This document shows positions 16,309-32,315 of a stretch of DNA of 64,000 nucleotides, in pieces (position 1 is the stretch's first letter; each line of letters opens with the position of its first letter). A model generated the notes under the pieces. The model saw only the letters and a program-made list of their open reading frames with translations, was not told where the DNA came from and did no database searches. The stretch is from Escherichia coli (GTDB lineage: Bacteria > Pseudomonadota > Gammaproteobacteria > Enterobacterales > Enterobacteriaceae), in NCBI RefSeq assembly GCF_044324785.1, contig NZ_CP172127.1. One strand, written 5' to 3'. Both the position numbers and the translations under genes were made by a program.

Positions 16309-17051
16309 TTAGTTAGTTCAAACTCAAAGAGTGATGTATCGCCTTCTGTTATTATTTATCAATAAAACAGGGAAGACCTTATTGGTCGTCTGAAATCGAA
16401 GGTTATTCATTTTCGGATATTTACGAGATATTTAGATATGCAATTTAATCAAATTCGTGTTTCTACCAATTGTAGAGCACAATGCTATTACTAAATTTTC
16501 ATCACTATAAAAGAATCGGCTATAATATAAAGCGCAGTCAGGCATCATTAATCTCTATATTATTCACACAATCTATTTATCAAGTGAATTTGATAAATTC
16601 CTAATTTAAAATATTCACTATTAAGCCAGCGTCTAACGACGTTAAGATGGCAATGTGCAGATCATGTTATCAGGGTGGGGCGGTAGCGTATATTCCTTAT
16701 ACAAACCATCATTCATTTCAATAATATTTATTGAGTTATTTATTATTGTGAATAAAAAGACATTACAAATATTGGTTTAACTTTGCATATCAGGTGTTTT
16801 TTTGTTACTCGATGTAATATACGAGCCTGTCCTTAATAACATCGTGAACCCGTCAGTTGAGTTTGTGATTATTTTGTTGACTCAACAGCCCCCCGTTTCT
16901 CTGAAGTAAAATCCCGGACAAAATTCTCACATAACCATGACACTTTTCTGATATTCCCCGGTAACGCCTGAAGCCGGCCCGCTTATCTCATTACCCGACA
17001 TGTTGTACATGCAATATGTGCGGATTATTATTCATTTTCACGGAGGTTGCT

Positions 17052-18953
17052 ATGTCAACCGGATTACGTTTCACACTGGAAGTGGACGGCCTGCCACCGG
17101 ACGCTTTTGCGGTGGTCTCCTTTCATCTCACCCAGTCACTCTCTTCACTTTTTTCCCTAGACCTTTCTCTGGTCAGTCAGCAGGTTCTCTCCCTTGAATT
17201 TGCGCAGGTGCTGGACAAAATGGCCTACCTGACGGTATGGCAGGGCGATGACGTACAGCGCCGGGTGAAAGGCGTGGTGACCTGGTTTGAACTCGGGGAG
17301 AACGACAAAAACCAGATGCTGTACAGCATGAAGGTGCGCCCGCCGCTGTGGCGGGCAGGACTGCGTCAGAACTTCCGTATCTTCCAGAACGAGGACATCA
17401 GAAGCATCCTCGGCACCATACTGCAGGAAAACGACGTCACGGAGTGGAGCCCGCTGTTCAGCGAGCCGCATCCTTCCCGTGAGTTTTGTGTCCAGTACGG
17501 TGAAACCGATTACGACTTTCTCTGCCGGATGGCAGCGGAGGAAGGCATCTTCTTCTATGAGGAGCACGCGCAGAAAAGTACCGACCAGAGTCTGGTGCTG
17601 TGCGACACGGTCCGCTATCTGCCGGAGTCCTTTGAAATCCCCTGGAACCCGAACACCCGTACCGAGGTGAGCACCCTCTGCATCAGCCAGTTCCGCTACA
17701 GCGCACAAATCCGTCCTTCCTCCGTGGTGACCAAAGACTACACCTTTAAACGCCCCGGCTGGGCCGGGCGTTTTGACCAGGAAGGCCAGCATCAGGATTA
17801 CCAGCGCACACAGTATGAAGTGTATGACTGGCCGGGGCGTTTCAAGAGCGCCCACGGGCAGAACTTTGCCCGCTGGCAGATGGACGGCTGGCGAAACAAC
17901 GCAGAAACCGCGCGGGGAATGAGCCGCTCGCCGGAGATATGGCCGGGACGGCGAATTGTGCTGACGGAGCATCCGCAGGCGAACCTGAACCGGGAATGGC
18001 AGGTGGTGGCGAGCGAACTGCACGGCGAACAGCCGCAGGCGGTGCCGGGACGGCGGGGCGCGGGGACGGCGCTGGAGAACCAGTTTGTGGTAATCCCGGC
18101 AGACCGGACGTGGCGGCCACAGCCGAAGCCAAAGCCGTCAGTGGACGGTCCACAGAGCGCCGTCGTGACGGGGCCTGCGGGAGAGGAAATCTTCTGCGAC
18201 GAGCATGGCCGGGTGCGGGTGAAATTCAACTGGGACCGCTATAACCCGGCCAACCAGGACAGCTCGTGCTGGATACGGGTGGCGCAGGCGTGGGCGGGGC
18301 CGGGATTTGGCAACCTGGCGATACCGCGCGTGGGTCAGGAGGTCATTGTGGACTTCCTCAACGGCGACCCAGACCAGCCCATCATCATGGGCCGCACCTA
18401 TCACCAGGAAAACCGCACCCCCGGCAGCCTGCCGGGAACGAAGACGCAGATGACCATCCGCTCCAAAACATATATGGGCAGCGGGTTTAACGAGCTGAAG
18501 TTTGACGATGCAACAGGGAAAGAACAGGTCTACATCCACGCGCAGAAGAACATGGATACCGAGGTGCTCAACGACCGTACCACCACCGTAAAACACGATC
18601 ACCGCGAAACCGTAAAAAATGACCAGACGGTCACGATCCAGGAAGGTAACCGCCTTCTTACGGTGGCAAAAGGCCACAAAATCACAGGCGTACTAAAAGG
18701 GTCCTTATCTGAGGATGTCTTTCAGGACAGAGGCACGATTGCCGGTTCAGTGCATGTTGACGCTGTAAACAATGGTGGCGAAGGCGACGGTATACAGGCT
18801 TATACGGCGATTAAGCAAATTATGCTGGCCGTGGAGGAAAGCAAAATTGCGCTGACGCCGGATGGCATTCAGCTACAGGTCGGGGAATCGACGGTAATCA
18901 GGCTGTCGAAGGATGGCATCACCATCGTGGGCAGTTCTGTTTTCATCAACTGA
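17052..18953 (+). CDS. vgrG: Type VI secretion spike protein VgrG (Rhs-element-associated)
   Basis: ATG at 17052 after GGAGG; 633 aa MSTGLRFTLEVDGLPPDAFAVV... with gp27-like N-terminal and gp5-like beta-helix regions; directly upstream of DUF1795 and rhs genes. Confidence 0.8.
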   Translation: MSTGLRFTLEVDGLPPDAFAVVSFHLTQSLSSLFSLDLSLVSQQVLSLEFAQVLDKMAYLTVWQGDDVQRRVKGVVTWFELGENDKNQMLYSMKVRPPLWRAGLRQNFRIFQNEDIRSILGTILQENDVTEWSPLFSEPHPSREFCVQYGETDYDFLCRMAAEEGIFFYEEHAQKSTDQSLVLCDTVRYLPESFEIPWNPNTRTEVSTLCISQFRYSAQIRPSSVVTKDYTFKRPGWAGRFDQEGQHQDYQRTQYEVYDWPGRFKSAHGQNFARWQMDGWRNNAETARGMSRSPEIWPGRRIVLTEHPQANLNREWQVVASELHGEQPQAVPGRRGAGTALENQFVVIPADRTWRPQPKPKPSVDGPQSAVVTGPAGEEIFCDEHGRVRVKFNWDRYNPANQDSSCWIRVAQAWAGPGFGNLAIPRVGQEVIVDFLNGDPDQPIIMGRTYHQENRTPGSLPGTKTQMTIRSKTYMGSGFNELKFDDATGKEQVYIHAQKNMDTEVLNDRTTTVKHDHRETVKNDQTVTIQEGNRLLTVAKGHKITGVLKGSLSEDVFQDRGTIAGSVHVDAVNNGGEGDGIQAYTAIKQIMLAVEESKIALTPDGIQLQVGESTVIRLSKDGITIVGSSVFIN

Positions 18954-18980: not shown

Positions 18981-19442
18981 ATGCAGTTCACTTTTAATGA
19001 AGGTCATATTCAGCTGCCATCGCAATGGCAGGATCAGTCGATGCAGGTCCTGGTGTCCACAGATAACAGTGGCATCAACCTGGTCATTACCCGCGAACCC
19101 GTTCCACAGGGAACCCTGACACCAGAACTGTACCAGGAAACGCTGGCGCTGTACCAGGGCAAACTTGATGGGTACACCGAACATGCCTGCCGGGAAATCA
19201 CTCTGGCAGAGGCCCCGGCCTGGCTGCTGGATTATTCCTGGAACGGTCCGGAAGATGAAGGGAATCAGGGGCGGATTAGCCAGATAGCCGTATTCCAGCG
19301 GCGTGGAGATACGCTGCTGACCTTCACTTTCAGCACCTCCTTATCCCTGAAGAACAGTCAAAAGACGATGCTGCTGGAGGTGATAAAGAGCTTCACCCCG
19401 TTGCCACCGGAGAATGACATCCAAAAGGACCAGCCGCGCTGA
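18981..19442 (+). CDS. DUF1795-family (EagR-like) effector-associated chaperone
   Basis: 153-aa ORF between vgrG and a prePAAR-containing rhs gene, the canonical position of Eag chaperones; assignment is by size and context. Confidence 0.55.
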   Translation: MQFTFNEGHIQLPSQWQDQSMQVLVSTDNSGINLVITREPVPQGTLTPELYQETLALYQGKLDGYTEHACREITLAEAPAWLLDYSWNGPEDEGNQGRISQIAVFQRRGDTLLTFTFSTSLSLKNSQKTMLLEVIKSFTPLPPENDIQKDQPR

Positions 19443-19461: not shown

Positions 19462-22400
19462 ATGAGTGAAGGACCAGGCGGGCCACAGGGAGCGACCGCA
19501 GGCGGTACGCTGGCAATGCGAATGCTGTCACAGCAGGCGATGGTCGCCAGCCAGATGAAACGGGCAGCCAACGACAAAGCCATTGCACAGATGTTGGCAT
19601 CAAAAAAGTCTGGCCCCCCCGCCGCCAGGCTGGGCGATGAAATTCAGCACAAGAGTTTTTTGGGGGCGCTGGCAGGGGCCGTGCTGGGGGCGATAGTGAC
19701 CATCGCAGAAGGTTGCCTGATTATCGCCGCCTGTGCCACCGGCCCTTATGCGCTGGTTCTGGTGCCTGCGCTGATGTATGCCAGCTATAAGGCGAGTGAT
19801 TATGTGGAGGAGAAACAGAACCAGCTTGAATCCTGGATAAACAGCTTTTGTGACAAGGACGGGGCCATCAATACTGGTTCTAAAAATGTAAACATTAACG
19901 GAAAGCCCGCTGCCAGGGCCGCCGTCACACTTCCCCCTCCTCCCCTGACTGAAGCAATACCCTCTCCACCACAGGGGGAACCTTCATGGGGGGATATTGC
20001 CACTGACCTGCTTGAATCGGCAGCGGAAAAAGCAGTGCCACTGGCGAAGGCCTGGGGGAACGCTGTTATCACCCTGACGGACAGCAATGCCAGTTTTATG
20101 GATCGCTTATGTGCAGGCACATCGCTTCTGTTTCCCTACGGCCCGGTATTAATGGAGTTTGCCACCATGGTGGGCGGGCGTGGCGAAATCAAAAAAGACG
20201 TGGATTTCCCGGAAGCCGGTGAAGACACGGCGCTCTGCGACAAGGAGACTAAACCGCCGAGGATAGCCCAGGGCAGCAGCAACGTCTTCATCAACAATCA
20301 GCCTGCCGCGCGCAAGGGCGACAAACTGGAGTGCAGCGCGGCAATCGTGGAAGGTTCGCCGGACGTCTTTATTGGGGGTGAGCAGGTCACCTATCTGGAT
20401 ATCCAGCCGGAGTTCCCGCCGTGGCAGAGAATGATCCTGGGGGGAATAACGATAGCCAGCTATCTTCTGCCGCCAGCGGGACTGCTGGGAAAAATGAAGA
20501 ATCTGGCGAGACTCGGCAAACTGGGAAACCTGCTGGGGAAAAGCGGGAAGCTGCTGGGCGCAAAACTCGGCGCATTGCTGAGCAGAACAAAAAATGCCCT
20601 GAAAAATACGTATAACGTCCTGAAAAAGTTTATCAAAGATCCGGTTGACCCGGTAACCGGCGCGTACTGCGACGAACGTACCGACTTCACCCTGGGCCAG
20701 ACCCTCCCCCTCTCCTTCACCCGTTTCCACAGTTCTGTACTGCCACTGCATGGCCTGACGGGCGTGGGCTGGAGCGACTCCTGGAGCGAATACGCCTGGG
20801 TGCGTGAACAGGGAAACCGGGTGGATATCATCAGCCAGGGAGCCACGCTGTACTTTGCCTTCGACGGAGACAGTGATACGGCGGTTAACCCGTATCACGC
20901 CCAGTATATCCTGCGCCGCCGCGACGATTACCTGGAGCTGTTCGACCGTGATGCCCTGAGCAGCCGCTTCTTTTATGACGCCTTTCCGGGAATGCGCCTG
21001 CGCCACCAGGTGACCGGCGATACCAATGATGACCGCCTGGCACACAGCCCCGGTGACCGGATGTACATGCTGGGCGGAATGAGTGACACCGCCAGCAACC
21101 GCATCACGTTTGAGCGCGACAGTCAGTACCGGATCACGGGTGTCAGTCACACCGACGGGATCCGGCTTAAACTGACGTACCACGCCAGCGGCTACCTGAA
21201 AGCCATTCACCGCACGGATAACGGCATACAGACGCTGGCGACCTACGAACAGGACGAACGGGGACGGCTGACAGAAGCGGATGCGCGGCTGGACTACCAC
21301 CTGTTTTATGAGTACGACGATGCGGACCGGATCATCCGCTGGTCCGATAACGACCAGACGTGGAGCCGTTTCACCTACGATGCACAGGGCCGGTGCGTGA
21401 CCGTCACCGGGGCGGAAGGCTATTACAACGCCACGCTGGACTATGGTGACGGCTGCACTTCCGTGACGGACGGCAAGGGCATTCACCGTTATTACTATGA
21501 TCCTGACGGCAATATCCTGCGGGAAGACGCGCCGGACGGCAGTACCACCACGTATGAATGGGATGAATTCCATCACCTGCTGGCCCGCCACTCCCCTGCC
21601 GGACGGGTGGAGAAATTTGAATACAACGCCGTACACGGTCAGTTAAGCCGTTACACGGCGGCAGACGGCGCGGTGTGGCAGTACCGCTATGATGAGCGCG
21701 GCCTGCTCAGCAACATCACCGACCCTGCCGGGCAGACGTGGACACAGCAGTGTGATGAACGCGGCCTGCCGGTAAGTCTGGTGTCGCCACAGGGCGAAGA
21801 GACCCGGCTGGCGTACACGCCACAGGGGCTGCTGTCGGGGATATTCCGCCAGGATGAACGGCGTCTGGGCATAGAGTACGACCACCACAACCGGCCGGAA
21901 ACACTCACCGACGTGATGGGCCGTGAACACCACACCGAATACAGCGGTCACGACCTGCCGGTGAAGATGCGCGGCCCCGGCGGTCAGTCAGTGCGGTTAC
22001 AGTGGCAGCAGCACCATAAACTGAGTGGCCTTGAGCGGGCAGGAACCGGCGCGGAAGGATTCCGCTACGACCGCCACGGCAACCTGCTGGCGTACACGGA
22101 CGGTAACGGCGTTGTCTGGACAATGGAATACGGCCCGTTCGATTTGCCGGTGGCGCGAACGGACGGTGAAGGCCACCGCTGGCAGTACCGCTACGATAAA
22201 GACACGCTGCAACTGACAGAAGTCATCAATCCGCAGGGTGAGTCATACCGTTATATTCTCGACAACTGTGGCCGGGTGACGGAAGAGCGTGACTGGGGCG
22301 GCGTGGTCTGGCGTTACCGCTATGACGCCGATGGCCTGTGTACCGCCAGGGTTAACGGCCTGGAGGAAACTATCCTCTACAGCCGGGACGCCGCAGGCCG

Positions 22401-24324
22401 CCTGGCAGAAGTCATCACCCCGGAAGGCAAAACGCAGTATGCGTATGACAAATCCGGCAGGCTGACGGGTATCTTCAGCCCGGACGGCACATCACAGCGC
22501 ACCGGCTACGACGAACGCGGGCGGGTGAATGTCACCACTCAGGGCAGACGGGCCATTGAGTACCACCACCCCGATGAACACACCGTTATCCGCTGTATCC
22601 TGCCACCGGAAGATGAACGCGACAGACACCCCGGTGAATCCCTGCTGAAAACCACCTACCGCTACAACGCCGCCGGAGAACTGACGGAGGTTATCCTGCC
22701 GGGGGATGAGACGCTGACGTTCAGCCGTGATGAGGCAGGACGTGAAGTGCTCCGGCACAGTAACCGGGGTTTTGCCTGTGAACAGGGCTGGAATGCAGCC
22801 GGTCAGCTTACCAGCCAGCGCGCCGGATTTTTCCCGGCGGAAGCCACATGGGGCGGACTGCTCCCCTCACTGGTGCGGGAGTACCGTTACGACAGCGCGG
22901 GCAATGTGTCGGCTGTCACCAGCCGGGAAGACTACGGACGGGAAACACGGCGGGAGTACCGGCTGGACCGGAACGGCCAGGTCACAACGGTGACAGCCTC
23001 AGGCACCGGGCTGGGCTATGGCGAAGGCGACGAGACTTATGGCTATGACAGCTGCGGCTACCTGAAGGCGCAGTCTGCGGGCAGGCACCGGATAAGTGAA
23101 GAGACTGACCAGTATGCCGGAGGCCACCGGCTGAAACAGGCCGGAAACACGCAGTATGACTATGACGCCGCAGGCCGGATGGTCAGCCGCACCAGACACC
23201 GTGACGGCTACCGCCCGGAAACAGAGCGGTTCCGGTGGGACAGCCGGGACCAGCTGACCGGGTATTGCAGCGCACAGGGGGAGCAGTGGGAATACCGCCA
23301 CGACGCCAGCGGCAGGCGGACGGAAAAACGCTGCGACCGGAAGAAAATCCGTTTTACGTACCTGTGGGACGGCGACAATATTGCGGAAATCCGGGAATAC
23401 CGCGATGATAAACTGTACAGCGTACGGCACCTGGTGTTTAACGGCTTTGAGCTGGTAAGCCAGCAGTGCAGCCGGGTACGGCAGGCGCATCCGTCCGTGG
23501 CCCCGCAGTGGGTGACGCGAACGAATTATGCGGTGAGCGACCTGACAGGCCGCCCGCTGATGCTCTTTAACAGTGAAGGTAAAACCGTCTGGCGGCCGGG
23601 ACAGACCAGCCTGTGGGGGCTGGCACTCAGCCTGCCCGCAGACACCGGCTACCCGGACCCGCGCGGGGAACTGGACCCGGAAGCCCCCCCCGGCCTGCTG
23701 TATGCGGGACAGTGGCAGGATACGGAATCGGGGCTGTGCTATAACCGGTTCCGGTATTACGAGCCGGAAACCGGAATGTACCTGGTGAGTGATCCGCTGG
23801 GGTTGCAGGGAGGTGAGCAGACTTACCGGTATGTGCCTAATCCTTGTGGGTATGTTGATCCGCTGGGGCTGGCAAAAACCAGTATTATAAAATCTTCTAC
23901 AGGCAAAATCCCACAAGGGTTAACAAAAAGCGAATTTGAGATTTTTTCAAAAAAATTAAAGGATGTATTAGCCCGAGAGGGAATCTCGACAGAGAATGTG
24001 TTTGTACATGGCAGTAGAGCCAGAGGAGATGCTGTATCAGGTGTTTCAGATATTGATATAAAAGTGATCCTTAGTGATAAAGATTTTGGTGCCTTTGCAG
24101 CAAGACGTATTGCTGAGTCCTCAGGAAGGACTCGAAATTTAATCAGGAAGGCCGTTGCTAAAAATCAAAAAATAAATTCAAGAGGAATTTCTAAAACTTT
24201 TGAATCTACTGTATGGGATGAGGTTTTCACTACCTTACCAAAAGGTGAGTTTTCAAGCATTCAAGTTTCTGTTATGACCAAAACTTCACCATTCAACACT
24301 AATCCGAGTATTATATTACCATGA
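19462..24324 (+). CDS. rhs: Rhs-family polymorphic toxin: prePAAR motif + TM helices + PAAR domain + YD-repeat shell + DPxGL boundary + 150-aa C-terminal nucleotidyltransferase-like toxin domain
   Basis: 1620-aa ORF; N-terminal AARLGDEIQH (AARxxDxxxH prePAAR) then hydrophobic helices; PAAR region GSSNVFINNQPAARKGDKLECSAAIVEGSPDVFIGG; many YD repeats; core ends VSDPLGLQGGEQTYRYVPNPCGYVDPLGL; C-terminal domain is much more AT-rich and contains VHGSRARGDAVSGVSDIDIKV. Confidence 0.9.
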   Translation: MSEGPGGPQGATAGGTLAMRMLSQQAMVASQMKRAANDKAIAQMLASKKSGPPAARLGDEIQHKSFLGALAGAVLGAIVTIAEGCLIIAACATGPYALVLVPALMYASYKASDYVEEKQNQLESWINSFCDKDGAINTGSKNVNINGKPAARAAVTLPPPPLTEAIPSPPQGEPSWGDIATDLLESAAEKAVPLAKAWGNAVITLTDSNASFMDRLCAGTSLLFPYGPVLMEFATMVGGRGEIKKDVDFPEAGEDTALCDKETKPPRIAQGSSNVFINNQPAARKGDKLECSAAIVEGSPDVFIGGEQVTYLDIQPEFPPWQRMILGGITIASYLLPPAGLLGKMKNLARLGKLGNLLGKSGKLLGAKLGALLSRTKNALKNTYNVLKKFIKDPVDPVTGAYCDERTDFTLGQTLPLSFTRFHSSVLPLHGLTGVGWSDSWSEYAWVREQGNRVDIISQGATLYFAFDGDSDTAVNPYHAQYILRRRDDYLELFDRDALSSRFFYDAFPGMRLRHQVTGDTNDDRLAHSPGDRMYMLGGMSDTASNRITFERDSQYRITGVSHTDGIRLKLTYHASGYLKAIHRTDNGIQTLATYEQDERGRLTEADARLDYHLFYEYDDADRIIRWSDNDQTWSRFTYDAQGRCVTVTGAEGYYNATLDYGDGCTSVTDGKGIHRYYYDPDGNILREDAPDGSTTTYEWDEFHHLLARHSPAGRVEKFEYNAVHGQLSRYTAADGAVWQYRYDERGLLSNITDPAGQTWTQQCDERGLPVSLVSPQGEETRLAYTPQGLLSGIFRQDERRLGIEYDHHNRPETLTDVMGREHHTEYSGHDLPVKMRGPGGQSVRLQWQQHHKLSGLERAGTGAEGFRYDRHGNLLAYTDGNGVVWTMEYGPFDLPVARTDGEGHRWQYRYDKDTLQLTEVINPQGESYRYILDNCGRVTEERDWGGVVWRYRYDADGLCTARVNGLEETILYSRDAAGRLAEVITPEGKTQYAYDKSGRLTGIFSPDGTSQRTGYDERGRVNVTTQGRRAIEYHHPDEHTVIRCILPPEDERDRHPGESLLKTTYRYNAAGELTEVILPGDETLTFSRDEAGREVLRHSNRGFACEQGWNAAGQLTSQRAGFFPAEATWGGLLPSLVREYRYDSAGNVSAVTSREDYGRETRREYRLDRNGQVTTVTASGTGLGYGEGDETYGYDSCGYLKAQSAGRHRISEETDQYAGGHRLKQAGNTQYDYDAAGRMVSRTRHRDGYRPETERFRWDSRDQLTGYCSAQGEQWEYRHDASGRRTEKRCDRKKIRFTYLWDGDNIAEIREYRDDKLYSVRHLVFNGFELVSQQCSRVRQAHPSVAPQWVTRTNYAVSDLTGRPLMLFNSEGKTVWRPGQTSLWGLALSLPADTGYPDPRGELDPEAPPGLLYAGQWQDTESGLCYNRFRYYEPETGMYLVSDPLGLQGGEQTYRYVPNPCGYVDPLGLAKTSIIKSSTGKIPQGLTKSEFEIFSKKLKDVLAREGISTENVFVHGSRARGDAVSGVSDIDIKVILSDKDFGAFAARRIAESSGRTRNLIRKAVAKNQKINSRGISKTFESTVWDEVFTTLPKGEFSSIQVSVMTKTSPFNTNPSIILP

Positions 24325-24671
24325 AGAAAAAAGATATTAGATTTGCAATATCCATTAACTCCAACTTAAGTAAGATAGAATTAATGGAAAAAATTAAAAA
24401 TATAATCCCAGGGCTTATTGAAATAACTTCCAGTGCATTAAGAGAAGAAAAAAACATGGTAGTTATTGAAGAAAATGATCTTTATGACCCTATAAAAGCA
24501 GAGGGAGCTGATGGATGGATGTATTATAAATTCATATTATCCATATTCCCATTAAAGGGAGTGGAAACAACATTAGAATATCAACGGGAATTATCTTTTC
24601 TTTTCTTAAAGAAAATAAAAGATGCGGGCCTGTTGGGTGAACTTATATGCGAGGATGATTTTCATGACTGA
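24321..24671 (+). CDS. Putative cognate immunity protein (RhsI) for the Rhs C-terminal toxin
   Basis: 116-aa AT-rich ORF whose ATG overlaps the rhs stop (ATGA); position and composition typical of Rhs immunity genes; no recognisable domain. Confidence 0.6.
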   Translation: MKKKDIRFAISINSNLSKIELMEKIKNIIPGLIEITSSALREEKNMVVIEENDLYDPIKAEGADGWMYYKFILSIFPLKGVETTLEYQRELSFLFLKKIKDAGLLGELICEDDFHD

Positions 24672-24729
24672 TGACCTCTACATATATCCTCAGTTCGTGG
24701 CTGGTATTACATGATCTGACAGGGAAAGA

Positions 24730-24883
24730 TCGTGGCGAAATCAAAAAAGACGTGGATTTCCCGGAAGCCGGTGAGGACACGGCGCTCTGCGACAAGGAGA
24801 ACAAACCACCGAGGATAGCCCAGGGCAGCAGCAACGTCTTCATCAACAATCAGCCTGCCGCACGCAAAGGGGACAAACTGCAG
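24730..24883 (+). pseudogene. Displaced 154-bp fragment of the rhs PAAR-encoding region
   Basis: Near-identical to main rhs 20177-20329 (GEIKKDVDFPEAGEDTALCDKE.KPPRIAQGSSNVFINNQPAARKGDKL); preceded by CAGGGAAAGATC at 24718-24729 and truncated by the IS left end at 24881. Confidence 0.8.
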
Positions 24884-26171
24884 GGAAAGATCACGTAACG
24901 CTGCTTTTTTGTACTAAATAATTCGCATTTTATGTTTAAAAATTGAGATATTCCTCATTACCTAAAGCTGTTTTTTATTGCTTATACATGATCAAATACT
25001 CCTTACATAATTAAGGAGAACAAAATGGAACTTAAAAAATTGATGGAACATATTTCTGTTATCCCCGATTACAGACAAGCATGGAAAGTAGAACATAAAT
25101 TGTCAGATATTCTACTGTTGACTATTTGCGCCGTCATTTGTGGTGCAGAAGGCTGGGAAGATATAGAGGATTTTGGTGAAACACATCTCGATTTTTTGAA
25201 GCAATATGGTGATTTTGAAAATGGTATTCCTGTCCACGATACCATTGCCAGAGTTGTATCCTGTATCAGTCCTGCAAAATTTCACGAGTGCTTTATTAAC
25301 TGGATGCGAGATTGCCATACTTCAGATGATAAAGACGTTATTGCAATCGATGGAAAAACACTCCGGCATTCTTATGACAAGAGTCGCCGCAGGGGAGCGA
25401 TTCATGTCATTAGTGCGTTCTCAACAATGCACAGTCTGGTCATCGGACAGATCAGGACGGATGAGAAATCTAATGAGATTACAGCTATCCCAGAACTTCT
25501 TAACATGCTGGATATTAAAGGAAAAATCATCACAACTGATGCGATGGGTTGCCAGAAAGATATTGCAGAGAAGATACAAAAACAGGGCGGTGATTATTTA
25601 TTCGCTGTAAAAGGAAATCAGGGGCGGCTTAATAAAGCCTTTGAGGAAAAATTCCCACTGAAAGAATTAAATAATCCAGAGCATGATAGTTACGCAATTA
25701 GTGAAAAGAGTCACGGCAGAGAAGAAATCCGACTTCATATTGTTTGCGATGTCCCTGATGAACTTATTGATTTCACGTTTGAATGGAAAGGGCTGAAGAA
25801 ATTATGCATAGCAGTCTCCTTTCGCTCAATAATAGCAGAGCAAAAGAAAGAGCCAGAAATGACGGTCAGATATTATATCAGTTCTGCTGATTTAAACACA
25901 GAAAAGTTCGCCACAGCAATCCGAAACCACTGGCACGTGGAGAATAAGCTGCACTGGCGTCTGGATGTGGTAATGAATGAAGACGACTGCAAAATAAGAA
26001 GAGGAAATGCAGCAGAATTATTTTCAGGGATACGGCACATCGCTATTAATATTTTGACGAATGATAAGGTATTCAAGGCAGGGTTAAGACGTAAGATACG
26101 AAAAGCAGCTATGGACAGAAACTACATGGCGTCAGTCCTTGCGGGGAGCGGGCTTTCGTAATCTTTCCCTG
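24881..26171 (+). mobile_element. ISAs1-family insertion sequence (Rhs H-repeat element), copy 1, ~1.29 kb
   Basis: Terminal inverted repeats CAGGGAAAGAT... (left) and ...ATCTTTCCCTG (right); contains a 378-aa transposase ORF; second copy at 31026-32315. Confidence 0.8.
25025..26161 (+). CDS. ISAs1-family transposase (H-repeat-associated protein, YhhI/YdcC/YbfD-like)
   Basis: 378-aa [40 protein letters not shown]...; recognised as the H-rpt protein family of Rhs elements. Confidence 0.85.
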
Positions 26172-26174
26172 GAC

Positions 26175-26396
26175 ATGACGATTATTGTTCGTTCAAATCC
26201 GAGTAAAGCCGCTATTCTTGAAGAATTTTTACATGGTACACAAGAGAAACTAGGAATAGCTGAAAAATTAGGACGTTATGGACTAGGGAGTGCAGAAACG
26301 CACGTTAAGGATTTCATGATAAGACACAAAAAAATGCTTGGGTTATCTGATGAGGATGTAGCAATACTCAAAATATTGAAAGACAAGGGGTTGTGA
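26175..26396 (+). CDS. Hypothetical small protein (73 aa from MTIIV...); possibly the remnant C-terminus of a toxin domain truncated by the IS
   Basis: ORF 26139..26396 continues in frame across the IS right end; first ATG after the IS at 26175; AT-rich; stop overlaps next ORF start (ATGA). Confidence 0.3.
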   Translation: MTIIVRSNPSKAAILEEFLHGTQEKLGIAEKLGRYGLGSAETHVKDFMIRHKKMLGLSDEDVAILKILKDKGL

Positions 26397-26683
26397 TGAA
26401 TATAATTCTGCCGATAAAAGATATATTTATTATTGCGGGAAACATAGTTTTTAGCGTTTTATACAATGAACATATTGAGTTCCCATGCCGCTGCCAATTA
26501 CTATCTTCAAATTCTGAAGTTATGCAAGAGTTATATATTGAAAAAGAGTTATTTATTAAACGCACTACAGAAAATGATTGTCGTGCTTTAGTGTTAAGAG
26601 GAACATTGGAATACTTATTTGATGAAATTATTGCTGGCGATTGTGCATTGGCCTTATTACAAAAAGAAATAAAAAAAGATTAA
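26393..26683 (+). CDS. Hypothetical AT-rich protein, candidate orphan immunity protein
   Basis: 96-aa ORF translationally coupled to the upstream ORF by ATGA overlap; very AT-rich; no recognisable domain. Confidence 0.35.
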   Translation: MMNIILPIKDIFIIAGNIVFSVLYNEHIEFPCRCQLLSSNSEVMQELYIEKELFIKRTTENDCRALVLRGTLEYLFDEIIAGDCALALLQKEIKKD

Positions 26684-27289: not shown

Positions 27290-30051
27290 TTTGCCAGTGG
27301 GACGAATACCATCACCTGCTGGCGAGGCTGTCTCCGGCAGGACGGCTGGAAAAGTTTGACTATCATCTGACACTCGGTCAGTTAAGCCGTTACACGGCGG
27401 CAGACGGCGCGGAGTGGCAGTACCGCTATGATGAGCGCGGCCTGCTCAGCAACATCACCGACCCTGCCGGGCAGACGTGGACACAGCAGTGCGATGAACG
27501 CGGCCTGCCGGTGAGTCTGGTGTCGCCACAGGGCGAAGAGACCCGGCTGGCGTACACCGCTCAGGGGCTGCTGTCGGGGATATTCCGCCAGGATGAACGG
27601 CGTCTGGGCATAGAGTACGACCACCACAACCGGCCGGAAACACTCACCGACGTGATGGGCCGTGAACACCACACCGAATACAGCGGTCACGACCTGCCGG
27701 TGAAGATGCGCGGCCCCGGCGGTCAGTCAGTGCGCTTACAGTGGCAGCAGCACCATAAACTGAGCGGCATTGAACGTGCTGGAACCGGCGCGGAAGGATT
27801 TCGCTATGACCGCCACGGCAACCTGCTGGCCTGGACGGACGGCAACGGTGTTGACTGGACAATGGAATACGGCCCGTTTGATTTGCCGGTGGCGCGAACG
27901 GACGGTGAAGGCCACCGCTGGCAGTACCGCTACGATAAAGACACGCTGCAACTGACAGAAGTCATCAATCCGCAGGGCGAGTCATACCGTTATATTCTCG
28001 ACAACTGTGGGCGGGTGACGGAAGAGCATGACTGGGGCGGCGTGGTCTGGCGTTACCGCTATGACGCCGATGGTCTGTGTACCGCCAGGGTTAACGGCCT
28101 GGAGGAAACCATCCTCTACAGCCGGGACGCCGCAGGCCGCCTGGCAGAAGTCATCACCCCGGAAGGGAAAACGCAGTATGCGTATGACAAATCCGGCAGG
28201 CTGACGGGTATCTTCAGCCCGGACGGCACATCACAGCGCACCGGCTACGACGAACGCGGGCGGGTGAATGTCACCACTCAGGGCCGACGGGCCATTGAAT
28301 ACCACCACCCCGATGAACACACCGTCATCCGCTGTATCCTGCCACCGGAAGATGAACGCGACAGACACCCCGGTGAATCCCTGCTGAAAACCACCTACCG
28401 CTACAACGCCGCCGGAGAACTGACGGAGGTTATCCTGCCGGGGGATGAGACGCTGACGTTCAGCCGTGATGAGGCAGGACGTGAAGTGCTCCGGCACAGT
28501 AACCGGGGTTTTGCCTGTGAACAGGGCTGGAATGCAGCCGGTCAGCTTACCAGCCAGCGCGCCGGATTTTTCCCGGCGGAAGCCACATGGGGCGGACTGC
28601 TCCCCTCACTGGTGCGGGAGTACCGTTACGACAGCGCGGGCAATGTGTCGGCTGTCACCAGCCGGGAAGACTACGGACGGGAAACACGGCGGGAGTACCG
28701 GCTGGACCGGAACGGCCAGGTCACAACGGTGACAGCCTCAGGCACCGGGCTGGGCTATGGCGAAGGCGACGAGACTTATGGCTATGACAGCTGCGGCTAC
28801 CTGAAGGCGCAGTCTGCGGGCAGGCACCGGATAAGTGAAGAGACTGACCAGTATGCCGGAGGCCACCGGCTGAAACAGGCCGGAAACACGCAGTATGACT
28901 ATGACGCCGCAGGCCGGATGGTCAGCCGCACCAGACACCGTGACGGCTACCGCCCGGAAACAGAGCGGTTCCGGTGGGACAGCCGGGACCAGCTGACCGG
29001 GTATTGCAGCGCACAGGGGGAGCAGTGGGAATACCGCCACGACGCCAGCGGCAGGCGGACGGAAAAACGCTGCGACCGGAAGAAAATCCGTTTTACGTAC
29101 CTGTGGGACGGCGACAATATTGCGGAAATCCGGGAATACCGCGATGATAAACTGTACAGCGTACGGCACCTGGTGTTTAACGGCTTTGAGCTGGTAAGCC
29201 AGCAGTGCAGCCGGGTACGGCAGGCGCATCCGTCCGTGGCCCCGCAGTGGGTGACGCGAACGAATTATGCGGTGAGCGACCTGACAGGCCGCCCGCTGAT
29301 GCTCTTTAACAGTGAAGGTAAAACCGTCTGGCGGCCGGGACAGACCAGCCTGTGGGGGCTGGCACTCAGCCTGCCCGCAGACACCGACTACCCGGACCCG
29401 CGCGGGGAGCTGGACCCGGAAGCCGACCCCGGCCTGCTGTATGCAGGACAGTGGCAGGATACGGAATCAGGGCTGTGCTATAACCGGTTCCGGTACTACG
29501 AGCCGGAAACCGGAATGTACCTGGTGAGTGATCCGCTGGGGTTGCAGGGGGGTGAGCAGACTTACCGGTATGTGCCGAATCCTTTAAGATATAAAGATTT
29601 CTATGGGCTTAGTAAGAGTTCAATAATAACGAGAGGAAAGAATGCTGGTCATGGCTATGCAGCCAGCGTTACACCTGGAGGCAAAGGTACGGTGTTGGCT
29701 GGTCACGGAGGATCAAAATTTGGCGATAAAATGATTATACCAGAAGGCGTATCGATAACGATGCCGAGAGATGGTATTAAAATATCAGATATGACTGGAA
29801 AATTACTGGAATCTGGTAATGTGGATGATATAATTAAAGCTGCAAGTAATAATCCTCGTGTAGCTAGCGATCTTGAAGGTTGGGTTACTTATTTGCCCGG
29901 CACTGAAATCCCTGATTATATTTTAAAACCACCCACCAATCTTAACATACTGGAAAATTCAGTAACGGTGAACACTTCAACTTATTTATCTCAAATGGTA
30001 AATGCTGGTCAAGGTAATGTAATCTGGGCTGCATGCACCGAATTTTTTTAA
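27290..30051 (+). pseudogene. rhs: Orphan rhs module: 3' part of the rhs core (no in-frame start; reading frame opens at 27255) fused to an alternative ~155-aa C-terminal toxin domain
   Basis: Homology to main rhs begins ~27290 (main 21565) and is near-identical from 27385; frame has a stop at 27252-27254 and no ATG until 27511; core ends ...DPLGLQGGEQTYRYVPNP then diverges (LRYKDFYGLSKSSIITRGKNAGHGYAAS...). Confidence 0.8.
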
Positions 30052-30065
30052 CGCGGGGTAATCGT

Positions 30066-30548
30066 ATGTATTTTAAAGATGATACTGACTATACATATTT
30101 CCTTCCTAATGAATATTTTTTACACGGGGTGAAAAATGTGGGCTGGATAGACAGAGAACACCCCTTCACAAAAGGGATTAGTGACGCTGAATTTATTGAA
30201 AAGTTAAAAGCAATAATTCTAACAGAGAATGAAGCAACTTGTTTTTCAGTTAATAAAATAAGAGGATTTCACAAATGTAATTTTTGCAATAGTGAAATGA
30301 TAACAATAACCGATGGAAGAAAAAAAGGATACCTTGGCATGAGTGAAATATGGATTCCATCCATCCACCATAATGAGTATTACGCGTTTCCTTCATTAAT
30401 TTTCCATTATATAACATCTCACATGTATAGACCACCAGAGGACTTTATTGTATCTGTTTTAAACTTGAATTTAAGCGAGAGTTTTTGCGCTCAAAACATA
30501 TATGACAATAAAATTAAGGAATTAAAAATAGACTTCTGGTTTCGTTAA
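30066..30548 (+). CDS. Putative immunity protein for the orphan Rhs C-terminal domain
   Basis: ATG at 30066, 15 bp after the orphan rhs stop; 160 aa, AT-rich, contains CNFCN and His-rich segment; no recognisable domain. Confidence 0.5.
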   Translation: MYFKDDTDYTYFLPNEYFLHGVKNVGWIDREHPFTKGISDAEFIEKLKAIILTENEATCFSVNKIRGFHKCNFCNSEMITITDGRKKGYLGMSEIWIPSIHHNEYYAFPSLIFHYITSHMYRPPEDFIVSVLNLNLSESFCAQNIYDNKIKELKIDFWFR

Positions 30549-31025: not shown

Positions 31026-32315
31026 AGGAAAAGATCACGTAACGCTCCTTTTTTGTACTAAATAATTCGCATTTTATGTTTAAAAATTGAGATATTCCTC
31101 ATTACCTAAAGCTGTTTTTTATTGCTTACACATGATCAAATACTCCTTACATAATTAAGGATAACAAAATGTAACTTAAAAAATTGATGGAACATATTTC
31201 TATTATCCCCGATTACAGACAAGCCTGGAAAGTGGAACATAAATTATCGGATATTCTACTGTTGACTATTTGTGCCGTTATTTCGGGTGCAGAAGGTTGG
31301 GAAGATATAGAGGATTTTGGGGAAACACATCTCGATTTTTTAAAACAATATGGTGATTTTGAAAATGGTATTCCTGTTCACGATACCATTGCCAGAGTTG
31401 TATCCTGTATCAGCCCTGCAAAATTTCACGAGTGCTTTATTAACTGGATGCGAGATTGCCATACTTCAGATGATAAAGACGTCATCGCAATTGATGGAAA
31501 AACACTCCGGCATTCTTATGGCAAGAGTCGCCGCAGGGGAGCGATTCATGTCATTAGTGCGTTCTCAACAATGCACAGTCTGGTCATCGGACAGATCAGG
31601 ACGGATGAGAAATCCAATGAAATTACAGCTATCCCTGAACTTCTTAACATGCTGGATATTAAAGGAAAAATCATCACAACTGATGCAATGGGTTGCCAGA
31701 AAGATATTGCAGAGAAGATACAAAAACAGGGCGGTGATTATTTATTCGCTGTAAAAGGAAATCAGGGGCGGCTTAATAAAGCCTTTGAGGAAAAATTTCC
31801 ACTGAAAGAATTAAATAATCCAGAGCATGACAGTTACGCCATTAGTGAAAAGAGTCACGACAGAGAAGAAATCCGTCTTCATATTGTTTGCGATGTCCCT
31901 GATGAACTTATTGATTTCACGTTTGAATGGAAAGGACTGAAGAAATTATGCGTGGCAGTCTCCTTTCGGTCAATAATAGCAGAACAAAAGAAAGAGCCAG
32001 AAATGACGGTCAGATATTATATCAGTTCTGCTGATTTAACCGCAGAGAAGTTCGCCACAGCAATCCGAAACCACTGGCACGTGGAGAATAAGCTGCACTG
32101 GCGTCTGGACGTGGTAATGAATGAAGACGACTGCAAAATAAGAAGAGGAAATGCAGCAGAATTATTTTCAGGGATACGGCACATCGCTATTAATATTTTG
32201 ACGAATGATAAGGTATTCAAGGCAGGGTTAAGACGTAAGATGCGAAAAGCAGCCATGGACAGAAACTATCTCGCGTCAGTCCTTGCTGGGAGCGGGCTTT
32301 CGTAATCTTTCCCTG
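31026..32315 (+). mobile_element. ISAs1-family insertion sequence (H-repeat element), copy 2, direct orientation relative to copy 1
   Basis: Same terminal sequences as copy 1 (left GGAAAAGATCACG, right ATCTTTCCCTG); transposase ORF inside. Confidence 0.8.
31187..32305 (+). CDS. ISAs1-family transposase (H-repeat protein), copy 2
   Basis: 372 aa from ATG 31187; the upstream ATG of copy 1 is followed here by TAA (ATGTAA), so this copy starts at the internal Met; a few substitutions relative to copy 1. Confidence 0.8.

Follow-up and report, generated by a model that had tools for sequence, protein, structure and literature searches.

The 64,000-nt stretch of Escherichia coli DNA analyzed here (contig NZ_CP172127.1; called the window throughout) is a chromosomal island flanked by cusS and nfrB. 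It shares 98.7% identity across 25 kb with E. coli N3 (NZ_CP031609.1), rising to 100% across 23700-24900. The island carries an rhs gene (19462..24324, + strand), one intact open reading frame (ORF), whose 1620-amino acid (aa) product ends in a predicted C-terminal (CT) toxin domain of 150 aa (residues 1471-1620; 23872..24321, +) resembling the minimal nucleotidyltransferases (MNTs) of the nucleotidyltransferase (NTase) superfamily. The candidate cognate immunity gene (116 aa; 24321..24671, +) follows directly, overlaps the rhs stop codon by 4 bp (ATGA) and is translationally coupled to it. The two products differ strongly in charge, with a pI of 10.05 for the CT (family median 9.46) and 4.98 for the 116-aa protein. 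The Rhs protein, a cleavage motif ending at 23871, a drop in GC content and the overlapping ORF had been pointed out in a preliminary description of this locus, and all of them are present in the sequence.

Two genes upstream of rhs connect the locus to the T6SS (type VI secretion system). The first encodes the spike protein VgrG (645 aa; 17016..18953, +), recognized by NCBIfam TIGR03361 VI_Rhs_Vgr (E 1.2e-188) and annotated as VgrG in N3. The second encodes an Eag-type chaperone of the DcrB/DUF1795 family (153 aa; 18981..19442, +; Pfam DcrB PF08786, E 7.3e-28). The Rhs protein is composed of prePAAR, a transmembrane region, PAAR, DUF6531, a YD-repeat shell, the Rhs core and the NTase CT, in this order. 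Pfam located prePAAR_I at residues 54-99, PAAR at 261-310 and DUF6531 at 393-446, and NCBIfam models for YD repeats, RHS_core and Rhs_assc_core matched as well, the last ending at residue 1470. Exactly there the boundary motif DPLG-x18-DPLGL ends (residues 1444-1470; 23791..23871, +), as read directly from the sequence. Its two DPLGL copies at 23791-23805 (residues 1444-1448) and 23857-23871 (residues 1466-1470) have precisely the DPxG-x18-DPxG spacing. The protein thereby displays the features of class I prePAAR Rhs effectors of the T6SS: prePAAR, transmembrane helices and PAAR, Eag and VgrG encoded upstream, and a YD-repeat shell with an Rhs core that ends in DPxG-x18-DPxG. Behind this boundary the GC content, 0.60-0.68 in the Rhs core, drops to 0.37-0.38 across the CT and to 0.27-0.32 across the 116-aa ORF, which marks the CT/immunity cassette as an imported module. 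The gene architecture points to delivery by a T6SS. Since C-terminal cleavage belongs to established Rhs biology (e.g. PMC8636562), the protein is probably cut at DPLG-x18-DPLGL.

The CT had been proposed to adopt a Pol-beta-type NTase fold on the basis of a short signature. Taken alone, such a motif was rejected as evidence, as the window, translated in six frames, contains four instances of the loose pattern hG[GS]-x9-13-Dh[DE]h, two of them within the Rhs repeats. The fold itself was borne out by Pfam, by profile comparison with the PDB, by an AlphaFold2 (AF2) model and by invariance among 36 homologues. Pfam matched NTP_transf_2 (PF01909) with E 3.6e-6 and Polbeta with E 5e-5. The profile of the 36-member family retrieved HI0073 (1no5; E 2.4e-5) as top match from the PDB, followed by 2rff and several MNT/MntA chains. 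The AF2 model calculated with the family alignment reached a pLDDT of 94 and a pTM of 0.86 and contains the NTase alpha-beta-alpha-beta-alpha-beta core, superimposable on solved NTases. In this model, V-H-G47-S48 ends strand 43-46 in the manner of the hG[GS] turn, and the Dx[DE] element D60-I-D62 stands at the start of strand 61-67. The closest structural matches were minimal NTases and not cyclases, with CdnE and CdnD also appearing in the PDB searches. The profile, structure and family-conservation evidence is far beyond chance, and we assign the CT on this sequence and model basis as a real Pol-beta-superfamily NTase of the MNT-like minimal class.

Several more specific assignments were tried. 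Weak NCBIfam and PADLOC matches to CBASS cyclase, CCA enzyme, MntA, ANT(4') and PDC-S09 models covered the motif region alone, and the NCBIfam MntA model scored 16 bits against a cut-off of 60. A Ntox47 identity was rejected as noise (Pfam E = 1). While the earlier suggestion of a relationship to MNT proteins was confirmed by the matches to HI0073 and MntA, its extension to MenT/AbiEii was not: neither profile nor structural support was obtained, an AbiEii/DUF1814 match is missing and so is the bilobed fold of ~300 aa. RelA/SpoT membership was likewise discarded, as the domain shows neither the synthetase profile or fold nor a RelA/SpoT Pfam match.

Conservation within the family is concentrated at the predicted active site. 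G47, S48, R49, D60 and D62 (G1517, S1518, R1519, D1530 and D1532 of the Rhs protein; 24010..24057, +) are the sole invariant columns in the alignment of 36 homologues, which are 24-79% identical; G52, A54, F72, S133 and P145 are nearly invariant. With A1471 counted as residue 1, the aspartates carry the numbers D60 and D62 already given in the preliminary description, whereas G48 and S49 of that description become G47 and S48. In the same way, the peptide quoted there, VFVHGSRARGDAVSGVSDIDIKV (VFVHGS...IKV), is present but spans 23998-24066 rather than 24007-24069, position 24007 being the histidine of HGS. The spacing is GS-x11-DID in the E. coli CT and x10 in most family members. We equate this motif with GSX10DXD of MntA, to which the phosphates of ATP and two Mg2+ ions bind, D71 acting as the third ligand, and whose mutation abolishes activity (PMC7641770). 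The resemblance to MNT/MntA proteins (HI0073; the antitoxins of HepT/MntA type VII toxin-antitoxin (TA) systems; PF01909) therefore comprises the best profile and structural matches, the GS-x10/11-DxD motif with its following arginine (GSR), and the small, single-domain size class. The CT differs from them by a helical insertion of ~45 residues (helices 85-98, 103-106 and 110-117) between helix 3 and the third-carboxylate strand (130-136), by a glutamine in that strand, and by the family's own motifs IPQG[LF][ST]xxxF and SPF[ND]xGP on either side of the NTase core.

According to the strand order of the AF2 model, Q131 in the strand I130-Q131-V-S133 (24262..24270, +) would be the equivalent of MntA D71. 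This column contains glutamine in 23 and aspartate in 13 of the 36 sequences, and S133 is kept in 35 of them. At position 142 aspartate (19/36) and asparagine (12/36) predominate. Sequences lacking D142 nearly always carry E111, and the close clade does so without exception; in two of the 36 sequences, positions 111, 131 and 142 all lack an acid. The E. coli CT has the combination Q131/E111/N142, encoded at 24262-24264, 24202-24204 and 24295-24297, respectively. In this alignment, with kinship uncorrected, acidic residues seem to roam across the three positions, which may reflect compensatory relocation of the third metal ligand.

An HMMER search of 1.84 billion representative proteins yielded 42 CT homologues. 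In every protein longer than the domain itself, the domain is found at the extreme C-terminus. The carriers include a CdiA/two-partner secretion protein (2441 aa) with CdiB encoded upstream, a prePAAR-PAAR protein, Rhs core ends, DUF4280 (PAAR-like) proteins with and without a pretoxin-HINT (PT-HINT) domain, and a LysM protein (1465 aa). A structure search of AFDB50 added, at TM scores of 0.7-0.86, WXG100 proteins of the type VII secretion system (T7SS; WXG/LXG), eCIS/DUF4157-type proteins (eCIS: extracellular contractile injection system), HecA/DUF637 proteins and Neisseria proteins. The hosts of these AFDB50 matches, on which the taxonomic breadth rests, belong to the Proteobacteria, Bacteroidota, Firmicutes, Actinobacteria, Planctomycetes and Chloroflexi; a scan of species-representative genomes with a narrower alignment returned one locus alone (L015). 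Annotations of the homologues read "nucleotidyltransferase domain-containing" or uncharacterized, and nothing more. The recurrence of the same CT on differing delivery scaffolds is typical of polymorphic toxins, and searched by itself the CT proved to be a portable tip, recurring in C-terminal position on CdiA, PAAR, DUF4280-HINT, WXG/LXG and eCIS-type proteins. In this respect it also departs from MNT/MntA, being a secreted tip fused behind the Rhs cleavage motif and not a stand-alone antitoxin.

Polymorphic toxins are further marked by an immunity gene that directly follows the toxin gene and co-varies with it, and both features were observed. At each of the 11 loci examined, the NTase tip is directly followed by a gene for a homologue of the 116-aa protein, across delivery systems, as expected for the candidate immunity gene named in the preliminary description. 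The CT and immunity genes often share the 4-bp overlap. Identity to the 116-aa protein is 66% in three enterobacterial metagenome contigs (L003-L005) and 45% in the orphan modules of Pectobacterium (L006/L007). It falls to 21-24% for L008, a PAAR locus, and L009/L010, a CdiA locus, where the hhalign probabilities were 96.4% and 97.6%, respectively. Further homologues were found at L013 and L015. Four of the 11 loci lay outside profile building and matched with E values of 8.5e-40, 6e-20, 4e-17 and 1e-11, the last three belonging to the distant loci L018, L016 and L019. At L017 the homologue is cut by the contig end (E 1e-3). The position of the CT as C-terminal tip on many scaffolds, together with an immunity homologue that always adjoins it, strongly supports, from comparative sequence evidence, the roles of the CT as polymorphic-toxin tip and of the 116-aa protein as its immunity.

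Seven residues never vary in the immunity family (F8, N45, N52, D56, G65, P77 and Q88), whose members, at 18-25% overall identity, retain both a loop of the form N-x-D-[HY]-D (N52...D56) and the motif [DE]G[WFY]x[YF][YF] (G65). As such polar conservation is unusually strong for an immunity protein, the loop could plug the GSR/DxD pocket, or the protein could have an enzymatic role in reversal. No Pfam, NCBIfam or PADLOC family was matched. The AF2 model (pLDDT 89) shows a generic alpha/beta fold similar to KA1 domains and a Burkholderia CdiI. This bears on the possibility of a disguised HEPN-MNT pair, in which the downstream protein would be a HEPN-like partner: with a KA1-/CdiI-like fold, no RX4-6H motif and no Pfam match, it was rejected. 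The adjacent HEPN partner typical of MNT/MntA is thus missing at the CT locus, and an unrelated alpha/beta protein takes its place. On two metagenome contigs (L011, 220-570; L012, 305-655) a distant immunity homologue lacks an upstream NTase tip, and in L011 a DDE transposase gene adjoins it; these copies appear to be free-standing orphan immunity genes.

Within E. coli the complete module is rare. Among 5426 complete genomes, the whole cassette was present in one, that of strain N3. Its rhs orthologue (L001, 7766-12625) is split by frameshifts into several ORFs, in contrast to the single intact ORF of the window copy. As a result of the frameshift, PGAP gives pseudogene status to the core and calls a 108-aa protein of its own for the tip, named "nucleotidyltransferase domain-containing protein"; automated annotation masks the toxin context in the sole complete genome bearing the whole cassette. 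In the NCBI data the identical 1620-aa Rhs protein occurs on nine contigs and the identical immunity protein on 42. A remnant alone, starting in the middle of the CT at window position 24107, was found in 138 of the 5426 genomes (24107-24671 in the window, corresponding to 3001-3565 in L002 and 2501-3065 in L014). The immunity gene of this remnant is intact in strain 2015C-3107 and frameshifted by single-base deletions in poly-A runs in strain 7/2. From their sequences, the remnants look like orphan immunity genes that were kept, and then decayed, after loss of the toxin. Carriage on plasmids or phages was not detected, as tblastn gave no match in 72,556 plasmids and 50,697 phage records.

The downstream edge of the cassette is formed by a displaced fragment of the 5' (PAAR) region of rhs (24700..24898, +; translation ...DVDFPEAGEDTALCDKENKPPRIAQGSSNVFINNQPAARKGDKL), which is 94-95% identical to its source and carried as a partial PAAR pseudogene in the N3 annotation. 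Right after the immunity gene lies a copy, 150 bp long, of PAAR-coding rhs sequence (~20179-20328), and remnant-bearing genomes share this junction. The copy is probably the scar of a recombination event that displaced or installed the CT/immunity cassette.

We consider, with a probability of roughly 0.6, that the locus encodes a T6SS-delivered Rhs toxin whose tip is an MNT-like NTase transferring a nucleoside monophosphate (NMP) to a hydroxyl group of its target, with the RNA 3' end as favoured acceptor and the 116-aa protein as immunity. In such a system, the Eag chaperone would hold the prePAAR/transmembrane N-terminus of Rhs, and PAAR would seat the protein on top of the VgrG encoded at 17016..18953, its would-be carrier. 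The YD-repeat shell would enclose the CT until cleavage at DPLG-x18-DPLGL sets it free. In the recipient cell, the liberated CT is predicted to bind NTP-Mg2+ through G47/S48/R49 and D60/D62 and to move the NMP, in a Mg2+-dependent reaction, onto a hydroxyl of an essential molecule. Donor nucleotide, acceptor and catalysis we infer from the sequence. The acceptor would most likely be the 3' end of tRNA, leading to a block of translation, with a protein hydroxyl as second choice. The acidic 116-aa protein would neutralize the CT, most likely by binding. The RNA 3' end is favoured because the CT is basic, its immunity protein is acidic, and other bacterial toxins of the NTase superfamily, MenT and toxSAS/CapRel, target the 3' ends of tRNA.

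A number of observations weigh against this interpretation. The third carboxylate known from MntA (D71) and pol beta (D256) is replaced by Q131, and with N142 in addition the canonical triad is incomplete unless E111 substitutes; E111, or D142 in other members, may compensate for the glutamine. T6SS core genes were not identified in the 64-kb window. The frameshifted N3 copy and the decayed remnants in most genomes indicate that the module is often non-functional in nature. The charge argument for an RNA target is weak, and MntA, among the closest solved relatives, poly-AMPylates a tyrosine of HepT, a protein and not RNA (PMC7641770). Finally, no biochemical or genetic test of any family member was found in the searchable literature.

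It is for the behaviour of these relatives that NMPylation of a protein has to be taken as a serious rival, although we regard it as clearly the less probable course. Here the same architecture would deliver an NTase that attaches an NMP (AMP, for example) to the hydroxyl of a side chain in an essential protein. MNT/MntA proteins, nearest in sequence and structure, use GSX10DXD for tyrosine poly-AMPylation (PMC7641770), and DrrA/SidM, acting on Rab1, and GS-ATase are cited in that paper as NTase-fold protein AMPylators. The very small CT, furthermore, is devoid of the separate RNA-binding domains of CCA, PAP and TUT enzymes. Against a protein target stand the strongly basic CT (pI 10) with its acidic immunity protein and the absence of a HEPN-like partner or other evident clue to a protein substrate. 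The known free-standing bacterial toxins of the NTase superfamily act on tRNA.

Depletion of NTPs, or synthesis of a toxic linear or cyclic nucleotide as by Tas1 with (p)ppApp and CD-NTases with cyclic oligonucleotides, is improbable. A precedent from the wider NTase superfamily is the T6SS effector Tas1 (PMC11925235), and weak CBASS/CD-NTase cyclase matches over GS...DxD were obtained (NCBIfam E 0.0014; PADLOC down to E 6.9e-5), along with CdnE/CdnD in the PDB searches. The cyclase matches span the universal motif alone, however, and the CT (~135 aa) lacks the C-terminal lobe from which the acceptor-nucleotide pocket is built in CD-NTases. The missing RelA/SpoT match and the preference of the structural searches for minimal NTases over cyclases argue in the same direction.

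That the tip is catalytically dead or no toxin, be it a degenerate NTase fold that merely binds or a decaying cassette without present function in this strain, is very improbable: Q131 and N142 do stand where other members have acids, the N3 orthologue is frameshifted and 138 genomes retain a 5'-truncated CT alone with a sometimes frameshifted immunity gene, yet the window ORF is intact over 1620 codons and its product recurs unchanged on nine contigs, GSR and DxD are invariant even in the Q131 clade, where E111 is conserved too, and the strict retention of the immunity partner, including intact orphan copies, speaks for continuing selection against a live toxin.

The region downstream of the cassette contains further rhs material. 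An ISAs1 transposase gene (25025-26161) follows the displaced PAAR fragment, and more orphan rhs sequences lie beyond it. A second, 5'-truncated rhs copy (27511-30051; ORF of 846 aa) carries a different C-terminal tip, annotated in N3 as "putative adhesin". Its second DPxGL is replaced (…YVPNPLRYKDFYGL…), and the linker SKSSII resembles AKTSII of the NTase tip. A 171-aa ORF (30033-30548) overlaps the end of this copy and is a candidate immunity gene. The transposase gene at 25025-26161 and a second one of the ISAs1 family at 31184-32305, ~96% identical to each other, bracket the orphan rhs CT/immunity modules; the pair also encloses small ORFs at 26139-26683 and a fragment annotated in N3 as zincin-like metallopeptidase toxin. 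This arrangement suggests that the orphan array was shuffled by insertion sequence activity. Two long antisense ORFs inside the GC-rich rhs core of the first copy (20149-21636, - strand, 495 aa; 22999-23916, - strand, 305 aa) are almost certainly compositional artefacts and not genes.

Among known conflict systems, several share parts of this design. The MenT and AbiEii proteins of TA and abortive infection systems, which nucleotidylate tRNA 3' ends, likewise combine an NTase-superfamily toxin with a cognate neutralizing protein, and they serve as model for the favoured RNA mechanism. Tas1 of Pseudomonas aeruginosa, which belongs to the Pol-beta NTase superfamily in its wider sense, is an antibacterial T6SS effector with cognate immunity (PMC11925235, PMC3482391); it differs in being an RSH-family pyrophosphokinase that synthesizes (p)ppApp, whereas the CT resembles MNTs. 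DrrA/SidM, a GS-ATase-like effector of the Legionella type IV secretion system, is also secreted and AMPylates its target through an NTase domain with a G-x11-DxD motif, as cited in PMC7641770. Its eukaryotic target Rab1, its different NTase family and secretion system, and the lack of an immunity protein set it apart. Closest in organization are the E. coli Rhs-CT1 to CT10 loci (Ma et al. 2017, as reviewed in PMC6730261), which have the order vgrG-eagR-PAAR-Rhs-CT and downstream orphan CT/immunity modules. No NTase tip is named in this classification as given there.

The tips catalogued so far comprise nucleases, deaminases, ADP-ribosyltransferases, NADases, RelA/SpoT-like enzymes and peptidases (PMC3482391, PMC11925235, PMC6730261), and in the 2012 catalogue of polymorphic toxins RelA/SpoT-like enzymes are the sole NTases listed (PMC3482391). 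An MNT-like NTase tip with this immunity family is absent from that catalogue, from a 2025 review of T6SS effectors (PMC11925235) and from the E. coli Rhs-CT classification (PMC6730261). The CT and immunity domains are not in Pfam as toxin families, and a characterized MNT-like polymorphic toxin was not found in the full-text literature searched, with subscription-only papers outside it. To our knowledge, MNT-type minimal NTases have so far been described in two roles alone, antitoxins to HEPN toxins and enzymes that modify small molecules. Judged from its sequence, the locus would thus combine an ordinary delivery system and a known delivery/immunity logic with an enzymatic warhead class not yet described. 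For a family that is uncharacterized and sits on so many delivery systems, a killing mechanism so far undescribed among interbacterial toxins is probable.

The odds lean slightly towards a broader view, namely that the MNT fold was recruited as a widespread class of interbacterial toxins, carried by type V secretion, T6SS, T7SS, eCIS-like and HINT-processed proteins across Proteobacteria, Bacteroidota, Firmicutes, Actinobacteria and Planctomycetes. This class would have its own immunity family, a novel nucleotidylation of tRNA/RNA or of an essential protein and perhaps a roaming third ligand (D131, E111, D142). Rhs, CdiA and LXG toxins are a main source of newly found antibacterial enzyme activities. 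The family is readily testable: the toxin/immunity pair takes up 266 codons, there is no ambiguity about the predicted active-site residues, and E. coli is the native host. If the tip is indeed a nucleotidylating enzyme, both its killing chemistry and the fold of its immunity protein would be new, and a compact enzyme of ~135 aa acting on a defined target would become a possible tool. The MNT fold would then take both parts in conflict systems, that of the antitoxin and that of the toxin.

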